This document shows, piece after piece, positions 1 to 64,000 of a stretch of 64,000 bases of DNA (the first letter of the stretch is position 1; every line of letters begins with the position of its first letter). A program made the translations under genes and the position numbers. Under the pieces are notes generated by a model. The model was not told where the DNA came from and ran no database searches. It worked only from the letters and a program-made list of their open reading frames with translations. Source of the stretch: Lytechinus pictus (lineage: Eukaryota); assembly GCF_037042905.1 (NCBI RefSeq), contig NC_087251.1, positions 42,224,001 through 42,288,000 on the forward strand, given 5' to 3'.

Positions 1-3000
1 TTATATCAATTCCTGAATAAGGCTTCGAATAGAGTGATTCATCAGTCTTGATAATATTAAGTTATTTTTCATATTTGTACAATGTTGTTTTCATTTTTAT
101 ATGATAAATAAAACTAAACTAAACATAATTTCAAGAGAAGGCAAGAGCATTGGCAGATAATATTAAACCATCACTACATCATCATCAACGTATATGATTA
201 CAGAAATGAAATTGTTAATTATTGGCGAGAGGGTTGCCAATGTATATGAGTTTGATTGAATTAGTGATAAAGATTTACTTCTTTAATGATATGCCATACT
301 CGAATGACTGTCTTAAGATTAATGATTATTATCCAAGTGTTTATACACACTTAAAATTCTGCCCCCCCCTTCCGCTCCTTGTTATAACATTATTTGAAAT
401 GTTATCTTGTATTCCATCTCAAAGCCAATGAAACTAAAGATGCCACGTCAACATCGTTATATGACTTGGATGCTTACATTATGATTTCTCCAGTCTCAAG
501 TGACTGTGTGGTGTCACTGGCATCTGCAGAGCTACATGTATGTCTTATTTATGTCTTATCAGAATACATGAATATTCATACCCATAAAAAAAGTGACACC
601 GTGGGGCTTCTGGCCTGAATATTTAACTGAATGACAATATTATATAGCCATAGCACATGGACATTCACCAAAATAAGAATTTGACCAACACATTTTCTTT
701 TTATTACTCGCTTGGAAAAAGAGAATTTCTTGCCTTTAATCAACTCCTAATTTAATGCATATAACCAATATTTTCAATTGGTGTAGGGACATTTTTACCA
801 GATTATATTACTCAGAACCTTTAAGTTTTAATTTAAAAATGTGATATAATTTTTATATTAAAGACATAGGTTAGCATTACAAATGTCTTATTTTAGAAAA
901 TTCTGTATCATTGATGCGTGTTATAATGCTGTTCTTGTAAATTAAATCTAAAAAAAAACACTTAATATGAAAATGCCCCCCCCCCCTTTGAAAGCCATAC
1001 AAATATTTTAATGAAAATTTGCAGTTCATAATTAAGTGATCCACCTTTTTCTTTTTTGCTTTTCAAATTATTCCTGGAACAAAGTCACCTCTATTTTGTA
1101 TAGTGATACCCCCCCCTTTTTTTTTGCTTGTCAAATTATTCCTGCAACAAAATGCCCCCCCCCCCCCTCTTTGGAAAATCCTGGATCCGCCCCTGATCCA
1201 AGGTACAGGTGTCAGAGGTGACAAATGGGAACTTGCAGCTCAAGATTTTTTAAAAGGTAAAACACCAATGCCTTTTTGTAATTTCTTCTATATGCTTATA
1301 ATACATGGTCGTAAATCCTTCAACAAAGATAGATTATTGTCATTAATGTGTTTACCATACTCCTAGGTTCAAAGGTCAGATGATGAGAAAATAACATGTA
1401 GATCAATGTATTGCAACACTATTTGCACAGGGGTGTATTTAGGGGAGAGCTTCATCAAGGAATTTGTTCTGTATTTGAACTGACAACAGCGAAAAGCTCC
1501 TGAATTCCTTGCATGTTATTGGTCCAAAGCTACTTTGCAAGTGAAAAATCACATGCAAGATACTTTGTGAAAGATTCCCCTGGATGAGACCTAGGAAAAT
1601 TGAAAAACCACAGAGATCGATCCATGAACTCAATTATTGAATGAAGAACTTGACAGACCACCAAACCAAATTATACAGAATGGTAAAACCATGGTGACCA
1701 GAGTTAGCTGCAATTTTAAAGATTAAAACAAACAACTTTAAAACAAAAATCAATAATTTCAGAGGGAAAAGTTCCCATGATTAGAGCAAAAGAGGAATTT
1801 TATTCACTCCAATAATTGCAATTTAGAATGTCTCTATGACGGGAAATCACGATATAAATTTGTTTAGTTACAACTTACAAGTATCTCATGCATTCAAGAA
1901 GGACAATACCTAACAAATTTTGTATGATGCAAAAAATATAGATTTTATCAAAACACTTCTTTCACTGTTGGCACAAGAATACTTTGGGTTTTTTTTTGTT
2001 GGTCGTTCTATACTGTGCTTCTCAAATCAAGAGAAGTTGATTACATATTGGCAAACATGTCCGAATGAATTATCTTGCATCATTACTCTGAGATAGAGTA
2101 AACAGCTGTCAATAAACAAAATTAAGCATAATTGTTTGTGGATTCTTTCCACATGGAGAATAAAATTATCTATATGCTTGGAAAAAAGGATTTGTACAAT
2201 ATTGAACTCGTTATATAAAGGCATGAGTTGAATAAGGGGTTAATCATCTCTACCTATAAGTACAAAAATATATAGAACTAGGGATTACGAGATTAAAACC
2301 TTATTGACATTGTTGTACCATTTTCTCCATCTAAATCTTAATCCAACAAATCTCTCCTCGATACAGGTAATACAATTCCTTTGATCAACCGTTCTTTCAG
2401 ATAATAGTTATCTTTAAAAAGAAAAAAAAAGAAGTTGTCAAACAGAAAACAAACAGACCTAAATAGTGACTTATTGGTAAAATGGTAGGCCTACCCCATA
2501 ATCTTTAATCTTTGAAAAGCGGGCTATTTTTTATCAACAAAAGCTCTGAAAAGAACTCCTACCACTGTAAGAAAAGTTATCATACAGGATGTAAGAGCTC
2601 CTAACATGTGATGTTCCTTTTCAGAATATCTGCAAAAGACATTCAAAAAAATTATCACTAAGAATATGACTAATTTGATTGTCTGAAGATAAAATCATGA
2701 TTGCTTGAAAGTGTATCGACTGGTAAATTAGTACCCTGTAATCTTTGAAAATAATTATCAATGAAAGCTTTTAAAAGAGCTGATAGGATATTGTTATAAT
2801 ACAGAATATAAGAGCTCGTAATGTGTTCAATTGCTTTTCAGCAAATCTGGAAAAGACATTTTTTTTTTATTGGTAAATGATTAATTTGATTAATTTGATT
2901 CTCCTAGGGTAAAATCATGAATTTGTTTTACAGGTACAATTTTAGCCTGTAATAGTGTAATATTTGATAAGCATGGTATTTCAATCAACTTAATCTATAA

Positions 3001-3622
3001 AAAGAGCTGCTTTCACTGCAAGAATATCTATCTAACAGAATGTGAGAGTTAGTAAAATATGCAGTTGCTTTTCAGATAATCTGGAAAAGACATACATGTA
3101 AGAAAGTATTGATGAATTTATAAATATAGAATATGATTAATTTGATTCTCTGAAGATCTACACATGCACTCTGCATACCATGTGAAGGAAAAAAAAAGAA
3201 GATTTTATGAAGATAGGTCTAAATTTAAATGGAAAACAAAATTGACGGAAATAGAACTGGAAATCCTTTTTTATTGGGGGATGCACTATTTGTAACCAGG
3301 AAAGTCCCTGGTATAGGCCCCATGATATATCGCACCATACTTTCTTTTTTTACACTGAAGAACAAAATTATACACATTCAAATTATGCCATCCTTCGGCT
3401 ATTTCCGGTGTTGAGGATTAAACACTGAGGTCCCTTGTCTTGATTGGATTGAGGCAATTTGAACTATTGTGAAGGAATAATGCTTGTTATGTGACTGACA
3501 GGATGTGCATGATTGCTAATCCTTCCTTTCTTCCAATCTCATTCACAAAAATACTACCCCATCCTAACCCCAACCCCCCAAAAAAAAATGATAAAAAAAG
3601 AAAGAATAATACTTCTTCTACA

Positions 3623-3674
3623 TCTACTACTACTACTACTACTATACTACTACTACTACTACTACTAGTAGTAG

Positions 3675-3767
<93 letters not shown>
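3623..3767. repeat. (CTA)n microsatellite followed by an (AAT)n-like tract
   Basis: Directly visible; it produces the spurious poly-Leu ORF. Confidence 0.97.
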
Positions 3768-4158
3768 ATAAAATTAAAAAAACTGGTTAAATGATAATAA
3801 TCATAATAATCATTGATAATAATGAGAATAATATAAGTATAATAATAATAATGATAAAATGGTGCTAGATTGATATAGCGCTTTTTGCCAGATGATACTA
3901 TTCAGACACGTTTCCCTAATAATAATATAAATATAGTATATTGAATATTATTAAAGCACTTTAATAAAATGTTTAAATATATCTAAGCGAGGGAGTGAAG
4001 ACACTGACTTTATCACCTGCAGAGCACTTTCATTTTTTGTAATTGAAAATTAAGGATCTGGTGGTGACTGACTTAATATGGATTTTTCAAACAGAAAGTT
4101 TGCAATTAAGGAAGGAAGTTGTTAAAATTTCAGGAGGGGGAGAGGGAGGTGTAACTAA

Positions 4159-4610
4159 GAGGCTGTTCTCACTACGTTCCTAAAACTAGTTTACTGGAAA
4201 CTAGTTTAGTGGAAACTAGTTTAACGCATAGTGAGAACGGTCGAAGCGGTCTTGGAAGCGATCTTCCAAACCAGTTTGGAAAACCACCTCGCGATGTAGT
4301 TTTCAAGATCGCTTTGCCTCGTTAAACTGGTTTTAGCGTAAGTAAGGACACAACCGTTCTTCGGGAAGCGATCTTCGCACATTTTGAGCGCGCTACTCAA
4401 CACGACAGGTGTAGAATGCCTCGAATTTCGCGCGAAACGTGTCACCCCACTGAGAGCGTTTCCATAGCAACAAGAGCGCTTTACGTGAAGTGATTTTGAA
4501 AACCACTTTCGTGTGATCAAGTGGGAACGCTAGCAAAGCGATCTTCCAAACTGGTTTCCTGAATCGGTTTCCAGTAAACTAGTTTTAGAAAGCGTAATGA
4601 GAACGGCCTC
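4159..4610. mobile_element. PIF/Harbinger-like MITE, copy A
   Basis: TIRs of about 40 bp (GAGGCYGTTCTCAYTACG...AAAACTAGTTTACTGGAAAC), flanked by TAA and TGA. Confidence 0.8.
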
Positions 4611-59025: not shown

Positions 59026-60749
59026 ATAAAGACTAAAGTCAGAAAGAAAGACAGATGCAACTCAAGTCGCAACGCCGCTCATTCGAGCTCCACCCCGGCC
59101 CCACACACATCAACACTACTGCCGTGTACTACGCCGAAGCTCCGTGATAGCGACCACTCGGCATCTCGATGATGCCTCCACGATATCCCCGGGCAAAATG
59201 CATTTTTACCTCGTAGAAAACGATGGAAATATGATATGTATTATCAATGTCATTCTTTTGGAAGTGATTTATTTACTACTTTATCAAATGATGTAATAAT
59301 TGAATAAATACAATAATTAGAAAGTACTTACATCTCCGATTCAAATTTTACTTCAATTCTGTCACCATCAACATTTTATCGCAGACGACGTGTGTGAAGA
59401 AAAAAACCGGCTGTTAGCTGCAAATCAGGCTCGTTCACGAACTATTTTTCATTTATTTATTTTTATTTACGATAACAATTTGTTATTGCTTTTATGAAAC
59501 GGATATTTGCAACTATACAAGATTTGTCATAGATATGGGAGATGTTACAGTTGCAAGCAAAGACCTTATAATATATTACTAGACCGAAAGCTGCGTGCGC
59601 GTTCAGCACAAAACAAATGAGATTAGGCTCCGCCTACCGCGATCATTTGAAGACAAAAATAAGCCCTCATTGACATTCATGAGCATGAAGATATTCATAA
59701 TCCGGCCTTTTCATTGGCTAAGAGCGTCATTAATACGCGATTTCCCCGATTCCTTGTCATCGATACTAGTGGTATCGTGTTACAGAAATAATTATTCATT
59801 TGACCTCATTACGTCATCTAATTTATTCATTCTGAAACTTTTCTTTCCACACACAAAATGGACCTACGAACACTCCGGTGAGTACGTATAAATTGATATA
59901 ACCACATGAATTCAGTGGACTATTTACACATTTCACACTGTATTTTGTGATCTTAGGTTATTTCTTTAACAAATTAGAGAGTTTGCTATCATTCTTCTGT
60001 TAAAGGAAAGCAGAATTTGGTCTTTGAAATTGAAGTTAGATTGTCATCGTCGCACAGTGCAGCCAGTATGTTGCTTGCAGTGTATTTTGTACGGGCTCCT
60101 AGCCGGCTGGGAATCGAGAGATAATCGGGCTGGTTTGGTTCACCTCCAACAAGGACCAACCCACGATTGATTAAAACAAGAAGAATGAGGCTTCTTTTTG
60201 TACACTGTAACGTTAGATCTAGAGGGAGATCTGCATCTGTCTTCAGTAGATCGAGACTCAGTCAGGAATAAACTGTGAAGCGGAGTGTGGATGAAGATAC
60301 GCCTGTCATGCCTGTCATTGACATTGTGTCAGTCCTCACTTTCAGATCTAGGCCTAGGCCTATATGTATATCAAATTTATTGTGCATAACTTCAGGCTTC
60401 TGCATTTAGCCCCCGCCATTTTAACTCTTATTGTTATTCATAAATATATAGACTCGGTCTTAGAAATAACATGCTGCTCTGCATGTTTGTTTTATTATCA
60501 ATAGATCTATGACCTAGATCTTCTTAATCATAGGCCCTACTTACTTTATCATGTTTATACTTAGATCTAGGCTACTTTACTTTTATTTATTCATCGATGC
60601 TATCATTTTATCAAGAGCTAGGCCTACCTAATTAAAATCTAGTCTAACTTATACTTTCCCAACCCTCGATACTTACCCCCAGGGCTTATGATCTAGGTCT
60701 GTAATTTAGGCCTAGATCTAGGTCTTGGCCTAAACGACTCCATTTACAT

Positions 60750-63700
60750 TGTTGTTCGAGTGCTCAGTTCGAACAATCTTAAAAGTGGAAATGTACTGCA
60801 CAAAAGACGAAATACATGCATCACATATATTCAGTCAAAAGTATATTGACTCACCGTAAGTTCTGTCCCACGATGAATCCAGTAGAACAACTGAACAGGT
60901 AGAAAACAGCAATATAACTCAGCAATAACAACAGTATAACTTCTCAATAGGTTGGTTCCAGTACATCTCTCAGCAGTATCCAAAGATGGCGATGCCGTCC
61001 GCATCCTCCATCACGGGGTGTCGAATCCCTGCTTCTGATTGGTCACCTCTGGTGAAGTTGCACGCGGCACTACATCTTGGCTTGCCATGAGGTCTCCAGC
61101 AGCAGACGACGATGGTAGCAGACGACAAGGATCAGTAGCTGAAAACGCCAAATCGGCCTGGCCGTTTTCACTACACTGCTCCCTTCCCAATTTTTTGAGG
61201 ATCGATACGGGGATCTCTGAAGAAGCACTCAAACTCTGGATGAGCAAGACCGTTGGAACCCGAAAGAAAGTCCCTCGGCCATGGCTACACCCATGAGGAA
61301 TGCCAACAACCCCTATCTGAACCTAGCCAAAACACAGCAATCAGTAGTTCTGTTAACCACCTTCGGAAACTGCTCACTCGGCACCCCCGCTTGGACATTG
61401 GGTCCTCACTAGAGCTTCCGCAGAGCACAGAGTATCCATGACTCAACGGGATAAGAGCAAGGCTCCATTATCTAGACCGGAGTCATAGGCGAACCAAACC
61501 TAGTATTCACTTCCCATAAACTTCCCAGGGGCTGCAAATTATGCCATGCCAGCCCACTGGGTAAACCACTAACCCAGTGCTTGGATACAAATCCTACGCA
61601 CTCTAACTCTTCGACAACATCCTGAACTATCTAGAGCAAGAATCTAAGTTATGCAAAACGCACTACATCAGACGGCAACAAGTCGCGAACATCCACCTGT
61701 ATAAAATATACAACAGGGACGGCGCTCGTGTTCCAGATATTCTCGAAGAATTATCCCAGAAGAGGAGAATTCTCCATCTTCATGGCAAGTAATTACTGGC
61801 AAGTGGAACCGTAAGTTCCAGGCTTACACACTTCATTCTAGCATGATCGGACACAATCCGAGACTAGTCACCAAAAGAAACTCTTTCCATAGAGAAGCCC
61901 AGCCTACAACAAGCTCAGAGCAATGCTATTGACAATCCAGTACTGCACCACCAAAGCAGGGTTATCAGCATGTGGCAACTGCAATGCTCGGAGATCATTA
62001 TGGAAAATTCTGAGTATCCATCTCGCCCTGGAAAGAACATCCTTTGTAAACCCATCTCGAACATGTTCATGGTACGGCTGCACAATCCAGCTGCCGACCA
62101 TACCTCAAGAAGTATTCTCCTTAACTGTCGTGGCGTTGGCAAAGAAGAATTCTTCTTGCCAGCCACTGCCACAGTAAGAGAAGACGGAAGCGAAACATGA
62201 AATATAACACCCGGTGCCTCAGGGTATATACTTAAATCACTTCACGATCATCCACTTCTGACACAGTATGGAGCGTCGTTTTGGTGCTGATGACCCTTTG
62301 GAAATAGCACACAGAAGGATGCATCTCATCTTATAAGTACACCATCAGGGAAGAGTAGAAGCTTCATGCAGCTACTTAACATCACACCTGAAGTCAGGTA
62401 AAACGTTCCCTTACACTACTTCTTGTGATGTCAGCCAATCATCGGCGAGTAAAGCTACTATGAATAGACGGCTGCTACTCTGGCAGATCATACAGCCTCC
62501 GGGCGTTTGCATTCGCCACAGTGACCACCTCCGCAAAGGTCTCCCCCCTTCTCATGGCTATCTCCTGAGCGAGCTCACCTAAATACATCGGTGTATTCGC
62601 CACAAGGGATCGCTCCGGTTTAAAATAAGGAGCGTCCGTTTCCAGAAGCAACCTTTCGATAGGGGTGTCCCTCAGCGCCTCATCCTGGGGGCCAGTGAAT
62701 TCTCTCACCTTCCCAGTGAAGCCGAAGTGCGCTTGGGGAAATGCTTCGGACCATGTTCTCCGCTCCTCTTTAACAAGTGTGCAGCAATGGAGGTGAATCC
62801 TCTGTTGGCGGGAACAATGTTCAACCAGCAATCGTCGGACATCTCGACTGATAGCAGTAGCACATGGATCCCCGGATGACCCACATAGATGTAGGATTAA
62901 CACCTTATTCCCTATGGGCATTCCCAGAATCTGGACCAACATGTTGATCTGCTGCTCCCAAGTCGTGTCCGGGATAGAGAAGTCCAGGCCCAGCTCAGAG
63001 ACACCACAAATCCGCTGGCTGGCCAATAGCGATCGCAGTCTACTCATCGTCTTCATAGTCACATTAGTGGCCTTCTTTGGATGAATACCAACTGCCACCT
63101 TCCAACGGGGGTCCTCTGGATACCAGATTCTTCCCCACCGTTGGGGGTCACAATAGTTAAGTATCCCTCCGGTCACACGCACCGGTTTCAATGGTAACCG
63201 CCCGGGACAAGCTCGAAGAGCAGAAACCCCTCGCATTCCCAGGTATTGCTCCATTCTGTCCAGGTGTAAGTGACTATCAATGACGATTGGAAGTCTATCC
63301 CCCTCATACTCCACCGGTGCTAGGCTAATTCGCCCCGCACGGCTAATGCCTGTCTCGACAGATTCGGATGACCTTGGTCTAACCACAGGAGAAGGTGACG
63401 CAACAGGAGACTCGTCTCTCTGCCATTCACCAACCTGGCCCCGCGGTGTAGCCGATGTAGCAATTGCCCCCTCAGCTCCCAACGGAACCTCTGATACCCC
63501 TGGGGTTATTAACTCGGCAGCCTCAACCTGACTCACTGAAGGAGCCTGGGAGTCCTCGAGTTCCTCAACAGAGATTATCCGAACTACTTCCACCCTCTGG
63601 AAAGACTCGACAACTTCAGTTTGTGTATTAGGCTTGGGCGAGACAGCTCCAAACCTTGGGAAACCTTCGGCCAAACTCAACCTAGGTTTCCGCTCCGGGG

Positions 63701-64000
63701 ATGGTTGGGCAATTGTGGGCACTGCCATTCTTTGAGGGAGGAAGTTGCCCAGCCCTCGTAACACAGCAGGCGGCCTCACCACCCCAGAAGTACCTGGTTG
63801 AAACGGAATACCAGCTCTAATGAACCCCTGTTCAAATGCAGAACGATGGAAGCCTAATGACGGGTTAACTAATAACTCCCTCCAATGTTCTTCTGGTGTT
63901 GGGTCTGACAAACCTTGTGCAGACACATCGCCCAATTTAGATCCAGCGGAAGGGAAGTTCATTCGGGAGTTGATAAGCAACTCCTCAGAACATTCACCTG
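60750..64000 (-). mobile_element. 3' part of a putative LTR retrotransposon carrying the TatD ORF (PPT 61176-61188, candidate 3' LTR 60750-61175)
   Basis: On the minus strand, GGGAAGGGAGCAG is immediately followed by TGTAG, and a 426-bp segment ends in CAACA. The segment holds CCAAT and YY1-like motifs. Composition shifts abruptly at 60750 from AT-rich to GC-richer sequence. The partner LTR and TSD are not in the window. Confidence 0.65.
62475..64000 (-). CDS. Intronless TatD-family (amidohydrolase TIM-barrel) metal-dependent nuclease with a long Pro/Ser/Glu-rich N-terminal extension; 5' end outside the window
   Basis: Motifs DSHLHLD, AVGIHP, GVSELGLD, LILHL, IHLHC, FGFTG, LLLETDAPY and NTP are present, and the TatD domain spans about 62478-63290. 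The frame stays open upstream of 63980 to the window end (GECSEELLIN...). Confidence 0.9.
   Translation of the reverse strand, partial: GECSEELLINSRMNFPSAGSKLGDVSAQGLSDPTPEEHWRELLVNPSLGFHRSAFEQGFIRAGIPFQPGTSGVVRPPAVLRGLGNFLPQRMAVPTIAQPSPERKPRLSLAEGFPRFGAVSPKPNTQTEVVESFQRVEVVRIISVEELEDSQAPSVSQVEAAELITPGVSEVPLGAEGAIATSATPRGQVGEWQRDESPVASPSPVVRPRSSESVETGISRAGRISLAPVEYEGDRLPIVIDSHLHLDRMEQYLGMRGVSALRACPGRLPLKPVRVTGGILNYCDPQRWGRIWYPEDPRWKVAVGIHPKKATNVTMKTMSRLRSLLASQRICGVSELGLDFSIPDTTWEQQINMLVQILGMPIGNKVLILHLCGSSGDPCATAISRDVRRLLVEHCSRQQRIHLHCCTLVKEERRTWSEAFPQAHFGFTGKVREFTGPQDEALRDTPIERLLLETDAPYFKPERSLVANTPMYLGELAQEIAMRRGETFAEVVTVANANARRLYDLPE

Follow-up and report, generated by a model that had tools for sequence, protein, structure and literature searches.

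Retrotransposons with long terminal repeats (LTRs) are taken to require gag and pol alone. Among the closest described systems that go beyond these two genes are Juno and Vesta of bdelloid rotifers, both reported to have a third open reading frame (ORF3) after pol for a nuclease of the 3'-5' exonuclease family with intact catalytic residues (PMC5408684), and the env-carrying Ty3/gypsy elements such as the errantiviruses, which likewise have a third ORF after pol (PMC13524379). A 2026 survey reports env-carrying Gypsy elements from most animal phyla and lists none in Echinodermata (PMC13524379). Here we describe a Ty3/gypsy element of the sea urchin Lytechinus pictus whose ORF3 encodes a predicted nuclease of the TatD family. 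Its 3' end lies in a 64,000-nucleotide stretch of contig NC_087251.1 (C7:42224001-42288000 of the 812-Mb assembly GCF_037042905.1; hereafter the window), and the next 16 kb were analysed as well.

The element resembles Juno and Vesta in that the nearest kin of its ORF3 are other element copies and not cellular homologues (PMC5408684). The resemblance is an analogy of layout and not of shared ORF ancestry, the rotifer enzyme having a DnaQ-like DEDDy fold whereas ours is predicted to be a TatD TIM barrel. The rotifer ORF is described as acquired at least twice and as showing no clear departure from neutrality (PMC5408684), whilst here there is one clade, co-divergence with pol and a ratio of non-synonymous to synonymous substitution rates (dN/dS) of 0.2-0.3; the hosts are echinoids and probably bivalves rather than rotifers, and a C2H2-helical domain is specific to the element family described here. 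A DEDDy (DnaQ-like) exonuclease was considered for ORF3 and set aside, as ORF3 matches TatD only. Like the env gene of errantiviruses (PMC13524379), ORF3 follows pol and is closely preceded by a splice acceptor, the donor lying near the 5' end as in an env mRNA, and unlike env it encodes a nuclease; an envelope or fusion glycoprotein was rejected because Pfam at E ≤ 0.01 finds TatD_DNase as the sole family in ORF3 and no envelope family.

We consider it likely that the 3' part of the window is the 3' end of an intact, recently inserted Ty3/gypsy LTR retrotransposon, and that its ORF3 belongs to the element as a gene of its own, having entered a Gypsy clade a single time, deep in its history, and been inherited with pol under purifying selection. 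The whole element covers 14,818 bp on the minus strand. Its 3' LTR (426 bp, TGTAG..CAACA, window 60750-61175, minus strand) equals at 426/426 positions a 5' LTR lying 13.97 kb beyond it, outside the window (C7:42299142-42299567), and since the LTRs are identical the insertion is very recent. Comparison of the flanks on both sides revealed a target-site duplication (TSD), ACAT on the plus strand, at window 60746-60749 on the 3' side and again directly after the 5' LTR at C7:42299568-42299571, outside the window. The polypurine tract (PPT), GGGAAGGGAGCAG, is directly 5' of the 3' LTR (window 61176-61188, minus strand), and a PBS-like sequence (primer-binding site, PBS), TGGCGTAGTCAGCAGTGCG, starting with TGG, begins 1 nt after the 5' LTR. 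Between them the gag gene (L022:649-2853, minus strand) encodes 735 aa with a zf-CCHC zinc knuckle in Pfam, followed, in the -1 frame and with an overlap of 100 nt, by pol, in which Pfam recognises an aspartyl protease, RVT_1, RT_RNaseH, Integrase_H2C2, rve and a C-terminal PHD finger (RVT_1 208-367, RNase H 430-558, Integrase_H2C2 790-848 and rve 865-961 of the pol segment, with the protease further upstream in the pol frame). This order of protease, reverse transcriptase, RNase H and integrase (PR-RT-RNaseH-INT), with the integrase after the reverse transcriptase, is that of Ty3/gypsy, and the TG..CA direct LTR pair with a short TSD is that of an LTR retrotransposon. ORF3 shares the frame of pol, from which it is separated by two stop codons; it comprises 1245 codons from its ATG, in a 1267-codon open frame that reaches C7:42290212 (L021:2475-6212), and its C-terminal 507 codons and stop occupy window 62475-64000 (minus strand), the ORF continuing beyond the window. 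From 5' to 3' the element reads LTR, PBS-like site, 2.3-kb leader with two tandem arrays, gag, pol, ORF3, 1.3-kb 3' region, PPT and LTR.

The initial annotation of the window had proposed the 3' end of an LTR element from an intronless minus-strand ORF of at least 507 codons, open at the window edge, with a complete TatD domain and its metal-ligand motifs, a PPT and a 426-bp TGTAG...CAACA segment. The ORF was confirmed at 62475-63998, the domain is complete, the PPT and LTR lie where they had been placed, and beyond position 64000 the identical second LTR, the TGG-starting PBS-like site, gag and Ty3/gypsy pol bear the proposal out, so that the partner LTR and pol, whose lack it held would speak against the element, are both present. 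It had proposed looking for a TSD matching ACAT or TACAT, and the duplication does match at both ends, in the 4-bp form ACAT and not the 5-bp one. It had also left TatD either in an env-like position or fused to Pol; the env position holds, ORF3 being a separate third ORF, whilst the fusion founders on the two stops.

The last 264 residues of ORF3 contain a TatD nuclease domain (window 62490-63281, minus strand) that matches Pfam TatD_DNase (PF01026) with E values of 4.5e-29 to 5.8e-31, the best match scoring 108.2 bits (cut-off 27) and covering profile positions 1-252 of 253. The ligand motifs DSHLH, SELGLD, LILHLCG, RIHLHC and LETDAP are all present in the translation, in columns that are invariant or near-invariant in the family alignment A1, and the HxH motif places the domain in class II with TATDN2, TATDN3, YcfH and YjjV. 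An AlphaFold2 model gave a TIM barrel with a predicted local distance difference test score (pLDDT) of 96.0 and a predicted TM-score (pTM) of 0.93, and in a Foldseek search with this model ranks 1-17 were all TatD-family structures (E 4e-16 to 3e-11). Of the proteins with solved structures, those that the profile matched best were E. coli YcfH (8.4e-29), E. coli TatD (7e-20), YjjV (8.5e-17), human TATDN3 (2.8e-11) and TATDN1 (~3e-6). YcfH (PDB 1yix) also agrees in fold (TM 0.72-0.78), in HxH and in the E/H/H/D ligands; it and the other bacterial class II TatDs differ in being stand-alone proteins of ~260 aa, and the element TatD is only ~23% identical. The NCBIfam model TIGR00010 gave 84.6 bits, under its 206-bit cut-off. 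Ligand and finger counts were taken on the 150 best representatives of a profile search, 131 of which span every ligand column; the complete set of metal ligands (H, H, E, H, H, D) was kept in 113/131, as it is in the window copy, and the other active-site columns D510, D608 and E722 (A1 numbering) were kept in 133-149 of 150. As predicted from these ligands, the ORF3 TatD would be a catalytically complete nuclease.

Upstream of the nuclease, ORF3 consists of a basic, disordered N-terminus of low complexity, a C2H2 finger with a helical domain, and a proline-rich linker that carries a 12-residue repeat. The N-terminal ~490 residues contain basic runs such as RGRRPRGGRRKKRP, which may be NLS-like (nuclear localisation signal, NLS). 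The finger and helical domain form a conserved block of CPxxGC, nine or ten residues and HxYxHxPxC, then ~110 residues ending in NSPAALxHWRxLAFL, in which the C, C, H and H of the finger are invariant in 38/38 aligned sequences and in all 82 representatives that cover the finger; the block is not universal, being missing from the 441-aa ORF3 of the related locus L030. AlphaFold2 models it as a small finger plus helices (six-helix; pLDDT 90.2, pTM 0.84). Pfam and NCBIfam scans of ORF3 gave no match for this domain, Foldseek against the PDB gave none at E ≤ 0.001, and neither the VIA-align wide search (best Z 3.6) nor the ESM Atlas (best score 0.76) gave a usable one; judged by these searches the domain appears to have no known relative, although a missing match does not prove a new fold.

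The gene layout is clade-wide and not a one-off capture. Searching the genome with ORF3 returned 87 TatD-like matches, far beyond chance, most of them 34-40% identical, intronless and in open frames of 440-1270 codons. Six diverged loci (L025-L030) were examined with up to 8 kb upstream, and the other copies were judged by the coordinates of protein matches. At five of the six (L025, L026, L028, L029 and L030) gag, PR-RT-RNH-INT(-PHD) and the TatD ORF occur in order, with PHD scored in four of them and a TatD only 36-42% identical to that of the window. A search with the integrase-PHD part of pol, in which 94 of 1220 candidates were scored, gave 33 rows at 55-100% identity before a drop to ≤51%, and a clade-type integrase lies 0.5-2.6 kb upstream, on the same strand, of 23 of the 35 TatD matches at E ≤ 1e-30. 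Reading the two lists side by side also pairs four weaker TatD matches with additional integrase rows.

Two further loci of the genome deserve mention. The sixth examined locus, L027 (C4:20312731-20322730), has a TatD-type ORF at 986-4525 (minus strand) in a 1180-codon open frame, no pol in 5.5 kb upstream, the ligand changes H>R and D>N, and further TatD fragments just downstream (C4:20310755-20311542); its TatD is nearly identical to two Lytechinus variegatus 'mucin-17-like' proteins (P0140, P0273), and it may be a domesticated or decaying derivative. At C11:23762575-23764730 (plus strand) an integrase match sits in an open frame of 2165 codons and is closely followed by a downstream TatD match; this copy may have pol and ORF3 fused in one frame.

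Beyond this genome, a search with the ORF3 profile A1 returned 863 cluster representatives at E ≤ 1e-30 among 1.84 billion. The named relatives that were looked up came from Lytechinus variegatus, Ostrea edulis, Argopecten irradians, Mercenaria mercenaria and one bacterial 'MAG' record, other protein searches named Diadema, Strongylocentrotus and Lytechinus pictus, and the source names were 'TATDN2', 'YcfH-like', 'mucin-17-like' or 'uncharacterized'. In one database protein an incomplete PHD finger precedes TatD. Thirty-two loci on metagenome contigs encode a relative, and where at least 3 kb was available upstream of TatD, pol lay upstream in the same orientation in 8/10, at 44-58% identity to the pol of the window element; five shorter contigs begin inside the pol C-terminus. 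The TatD-Gypsy layout defines an old clade in sea urchins, and the bivalve relatives, known from proteins alone, probably belong to elements too. In RefSeq the latter (P0169/P0275, which is Ostrea edulis XP_056014015.1, P0192, P0215, P0282 and P0283) are annotated as host 'TATDN2' or 'YcfH-like', and in the oyster protein only two of the six ligands remain (HYDKCD).

Pol and TatD have diverged together. Across six elements pairwise identity was 49-62% for pol, 33-44% for TatD and 28-39% for gag, and the pol and TatD trees share the split between the window element with L025 and L026 and the group of L028, L029 and L030 (support 99 and 99); both pair L025 with L026, and their sole difference is a branch with support 10. 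Between families the dN/dS of TatD was 0.28 (window element against L003, 140 codons) and 0.21 (L005 against L020, 248 codons), within-family pairs having too few changes for the ratio. The genome also holds a host TATDN2-like gene (C3:58226001-58232000, L031, minus strand), a single multi-exon locus in a TatD family scan, with a large exon for a long disordered N-terminal extension and the start of the HxH domain, then three small exons. Host TATDN2 resembles ORF3 in having a class II (HxH) TatD at the C-terminus after a long, largely disordered N-terminal extension (PMC10711561, PMC10085689), and differs in being one locus of at least four exons whereas the element ORF is intronless and multi-copy. 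Its TatD domain scored 117.8 bits against the element profile, the best cellular proteins scoring 90-125 bits, and the host gene gave no match to the finger and helical part of that profile. In a TatD tree all 37 element-type rows formed one clade (Shimodaira-Hasegawa-like approximate likelihood ratio test (SH-aLRT) 100), with the host gene opposite among 27 cellular proteins (100); the element TatD thus does not derive recently from the host gene, which lies outside that clade. That ORF3 is an orthologue of host TATDN2 was rejected, ORF3 being intronless, between LTRs, matched 87 times in the genome and separate from the host gene in this quick-search tree. The donor lineage may have been an ancient TATDN2-like or a bacterial YcfH-like one.

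The same LTR family is present elsewhere in the genome. LTR matches occurred at 18 places, comprising seven pairs at 98-100% identity, another pair at 82-83%, and single unpaired matches of 81% and 69%, with no solo LTR among the 98-100% matches in the genome. Among the seven LTR-bounded copies of the family two, on C7 (the window element) and C17, have the TatD ORF and are 14.8 kb each; the C17 copy is 99.5% identical to the C7 copy, its ORF3 is 99-100% identical in protein, and both frames are open over 1267 codons. The initial annotation had also named, as outcomes that would speak against it, an LTR family unlinked to TatD and a single-copy TatD nested within host TATDN clades; here the LTR family does carry TatD in two of seven copies, and the nuclease is multi-copy, forms its own clade and is pol-linked in many diverged families, the count of copies tied to reverse transcriptase or integrase standing at five of the six examined loci and 23 of the 35 strong matches.

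The 3' and 5' untranslated parts of the element vary between copies. The non-coding stretch of 1.29 kb between ORF3 and the PPT (window 61189-62474, minus strand) differs from the C17 copy by an indel of ~400 bp, at which the C7/C17 alignment is interrupted (ext 1738-2309); an inverted gag-like fragment of 15 residues (MERRFGADDPLE.., E 6e-6) lies inside this stretch at window ~62268-62312 (plus strand). The 2.3-kb leader between PBS and gag holds tandem arrays of 66 bp x 6.6 and 75 bp x 6.7 (L022:3084-3539 and 3819-4318), and is the most diverged part of the C7 and C17 copies, at ~90% identity. The PHD finger at the integrase end (L021:6360-6500, minus strand) recurs in four of five related families (L025, L028, L029 and L030; E 2.5e-8 to 7e-11 with the window element included), the broken pol of L026 having no PHD match, and it may be a chromatin-reading module for target choice. 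The gags of related families start with a helix-hairpin-helix motif (Pfam HHH_3, E 3.6e-8 to 1.3e-4; L028:7411-9057, L029:7603-9105 and L030:6630-8819, all minus strand), which is unusual for Gag; the N-terminus of the window element's gag looks similar, yet has no Pfam score.

The sequence before ORF3 suggests expression from an env-like subgenomic mRNA spliced from an LTR donor to an ORF3 acceptor. An acceptor lies 8 nt before the ATG (ttttcccctctgtttgtatttcag followed by atccgaagATG), and ttctaat...ttttcccctctgtttgtatttcag is a textbook branch site, pyrimidine tract and AG, so that the predicted acceptor junction would read tttcag/ATCCGAAGATG. Pyrimidine-AG sites occur at or near the ATG in three of five other families, directly in L026 and L030 and 66 nt upstream in L025. 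The LTR has a splice donor, ACG/GTGAGT, with the exon end at window 60854. Three RNA-seq runs bearing the same species label, of unstated tissue, were searched in the ~6% of each that was read. Element-sense reads fell on window 60669-61002 in two of the three runs, with a loose end at 60854 in 15 reads of X7 and 8 reads of X8. These reads show an LTR of the window element's family acting as promoter and splice donor for foreign sequence, so that an LTR-driven chimeric transcript or a polymorphic insertion is indicated; the assembly has no copy of the LTR at the partner site on C5. A contig run, X1, which is possibly DNA, covers pieces of ORF3 at depth 2-5 and was not used as evidence.

Several observations weigh against ORF3 being an inherited and expressed element gene. 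Twelve of the 35 strong TatD matches have no clade integrase listed upstream, and two of the ten informative metagenome loci have no pol upstream. The other five LTR-bounded copies of the window element's own family are deletion derivatives of 8.4-12.2 kb with near-identical LTRs and without a TatD match (C8:23447786-23456971, C5:22643910-22655881, C1:7637849-7650043, C3:63841628-63850105 and C16:276860-285249), so ORF3 is not needed in cis in every copy; the C1 derivative retains an integrase segment that is protein-identical to that of the window copy. At least one metal ligand is lost in 18/131 relatives, including the one named oyster protein. The TatD tree of 65 rows came from a quick search with SH-aLRT only, is unrooted with midpoint drawing, and has no TATDN1 or TATDN3 rows. 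A 15-nt exact search of the genome with the PBS found no tRNA gene, all 8/8 matches being PBS sites of the elements themselves. In L028 and L029 a clear acceptor directly at the ATG is lacking, the LTR-spliced reads join C5:14598246-14598275, on another chromosome, and not the ORF3 acceptor, and in the portion read of the three runs no read fell on L021 1337-7014, which includes ORF3, and only a handful on pol.

Reverse transcription makes RNA:DNA hybrids, RNA primers on cDNA, 3' ends for trimming and gaps at the integration site. Because reverse-transcribing elements thus make substrates of the TatD type, a role on the element's own intermediates is favoured. TatD enzymes are described as 3'-5' exonucleases and apurinic/apyrimidinic (AP) endonucleases, with HxH marking class II (TATDN2, TATDN3, YcfH and YjjV), and TATDN1, TATDN3 and the three E. 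coli paralogues are reported to cleave duplex DNA at AP sites as well (PMC10085689); the TatD of E. coli acts as a 3'-5' exonuclease that depends on Mg (PMC4176340), and human TATDN2 is reported to degrade hairpin RNA and the RNA strand of R-loops (PMC10711561). We propose that ORF3 would be made from a spliced subgenomic mRNA, joining the LTR donor to the acceptor 8 nt before the ATG as for retroviral env, that the protein would act in the nucleus, that its finger and helical domain would bind nucleic acid and that its TatD barrel would cleave 3' ends, AP sites or, in RNA:DNA hybrids, the RNA strand. By analogy with these enzymes we tentatively suggest that the nuclease trims replication and integration intermediates of the element itself, such as leftover RNA on cDNA, blocked or overhanging 3' ends, or gaps under repair at the insertion site. 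That it nicks host DNA and so aids integration is doubtful, and the remainder of our expectation goes to some other role.

A somewhat unlikely but serious alternative is that ORF3 mainly shields the element as a counter-defence nuclease, destroying surplus cDNA or RNA:DNA hybrids that would trigger sensors, or silencing small RNAs and their precursors. Since ORF3 is encoded apart from Gag-Pol, its presence in the particle is not required, and TatD evolves faster than pol (33-44% against 49-62% identity), although faster evolution of an accessory gene is expected without conflict too and its dN/dS lies far under 1. Elsewhere TatD nucleases serve in conflict, as described for QatD, the nuclease of the bacterial Qat anti-phage system (PMC13434339), to which ORF3 has a weak NCBIfam match (2e-9), and a silencing-related role is among the ideas offered for the rotifer DEDDy exonuclease ORF3 (PMC5408684). 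In its most specific form, which we regard as rather unlikely, an ancient marine-invertebrate Gypsy lineage would have swapped the env slot for a two-part nuclease (C2H2-helical plus class II TatD) that clears hybrids and surplus cDNA to escape host sensing or small-RNA silencing. If true, a retrotransposon would here carry its own equivalent of the service that TREX1 or TATDN2 render to cells, and copies without pol or catalytic activity, such as L027, would be decoys or regulators that the host has domesticated.

It is improbable that ORF3 is produced by stop-codon readthrough or by reinitiation after pol, as a Pol-TatD fusion, rather than from a spliced mRNA. ORF3 is in the pol frame in the window element, L025 and L029, with a single stop between them in L029, one integrase match stands in the 2165-codon open frame, and one database protein runs from a PHD finger into TatD; however, two stops intervene in the window element, the frames differ in L028 and L030, and four of six families have a strong acceptor just before the ATG. 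Very unlikely is a structural or targeting protein whose TatD barrel only binds nucleic acid, catalysis being irrelevant. Over half of the protein is non-catalytic, 18/131 relatives have lost ligands, and the pol-less L027, with H>R and D>N, keeps its 1180-codon frame, and a named relative from a second urchin species is almost identical to it, but the window copy and 113/131 relatives keep all six ligands and the columns D510, D608 and E722 are kept almost throughout (133-149 of 150). A recent, one-off pick-up of a host TatD, such as a processed TATDN2 copy, as inert cargo would fit an intronless ORF3 in the position where captured genes sit, the RefSeq name 'TATDN2' of its relatives, the long N-terminal extension before TatD in the host gene and the deletion derivatives without TatD, but it is already largely refuted and scarcely credible, since the gene order repeats in families only 49-62% identical in pol and 33-44% in TatD, in metagenome contigs and in other species, the pol and TatD trees agree at a dN/dS of 0.2-0.3, the host gene lies apart from the single clade of element TatDs, and a family-specific N-domain travels with TatD.

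With ORF3 read as an inherited element gene, what we describe is a clade of LTR retrotransposons whose accessory enzyme and companion domain are both new, and for which a library entry in Repbase or Dfam may already exist. A search of the full-text literature, judged by titles and abstract starts and with Repbase, Dfam and subscription journals outside its reach, found no published description of a TatD gene in a retrotransposon, and the titles retrieved for PHD finger, integrase and LTR retrotransposon held nothing clearly on the TatD-Gypsy clade. In the giant-squid genome 'TATDN2' is listed among transposon-like genes inside the Hox cluster (PMC6962438), and this may be the same TatD-Gypsy family, a lead only. 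Host-gene labels in RefSeq ("TATDN2", "YcfH-like", "mucin-17-like") inflate the apparent number of TatD genes, and work on how TATDN evolved in invertebrates can be misled by them. TatD ORF3 occupies the third-ORF slot in a phylum for which the survey, as reported, saw no env-carrying Gypsy (PMC13524379). The TatD nuclease has been kept with pol through deep divergence, alongside a companion domain of unrecognised fold, and such a conserved extra enzyme exposes a step of the life cycle or of the conflict with the host beyond the core genes. The clade is therefore a tractable system for finding out what a nuclease for 3' ends, AP sites or RNA:DNA hybrids does for reverse-transcribing elements.

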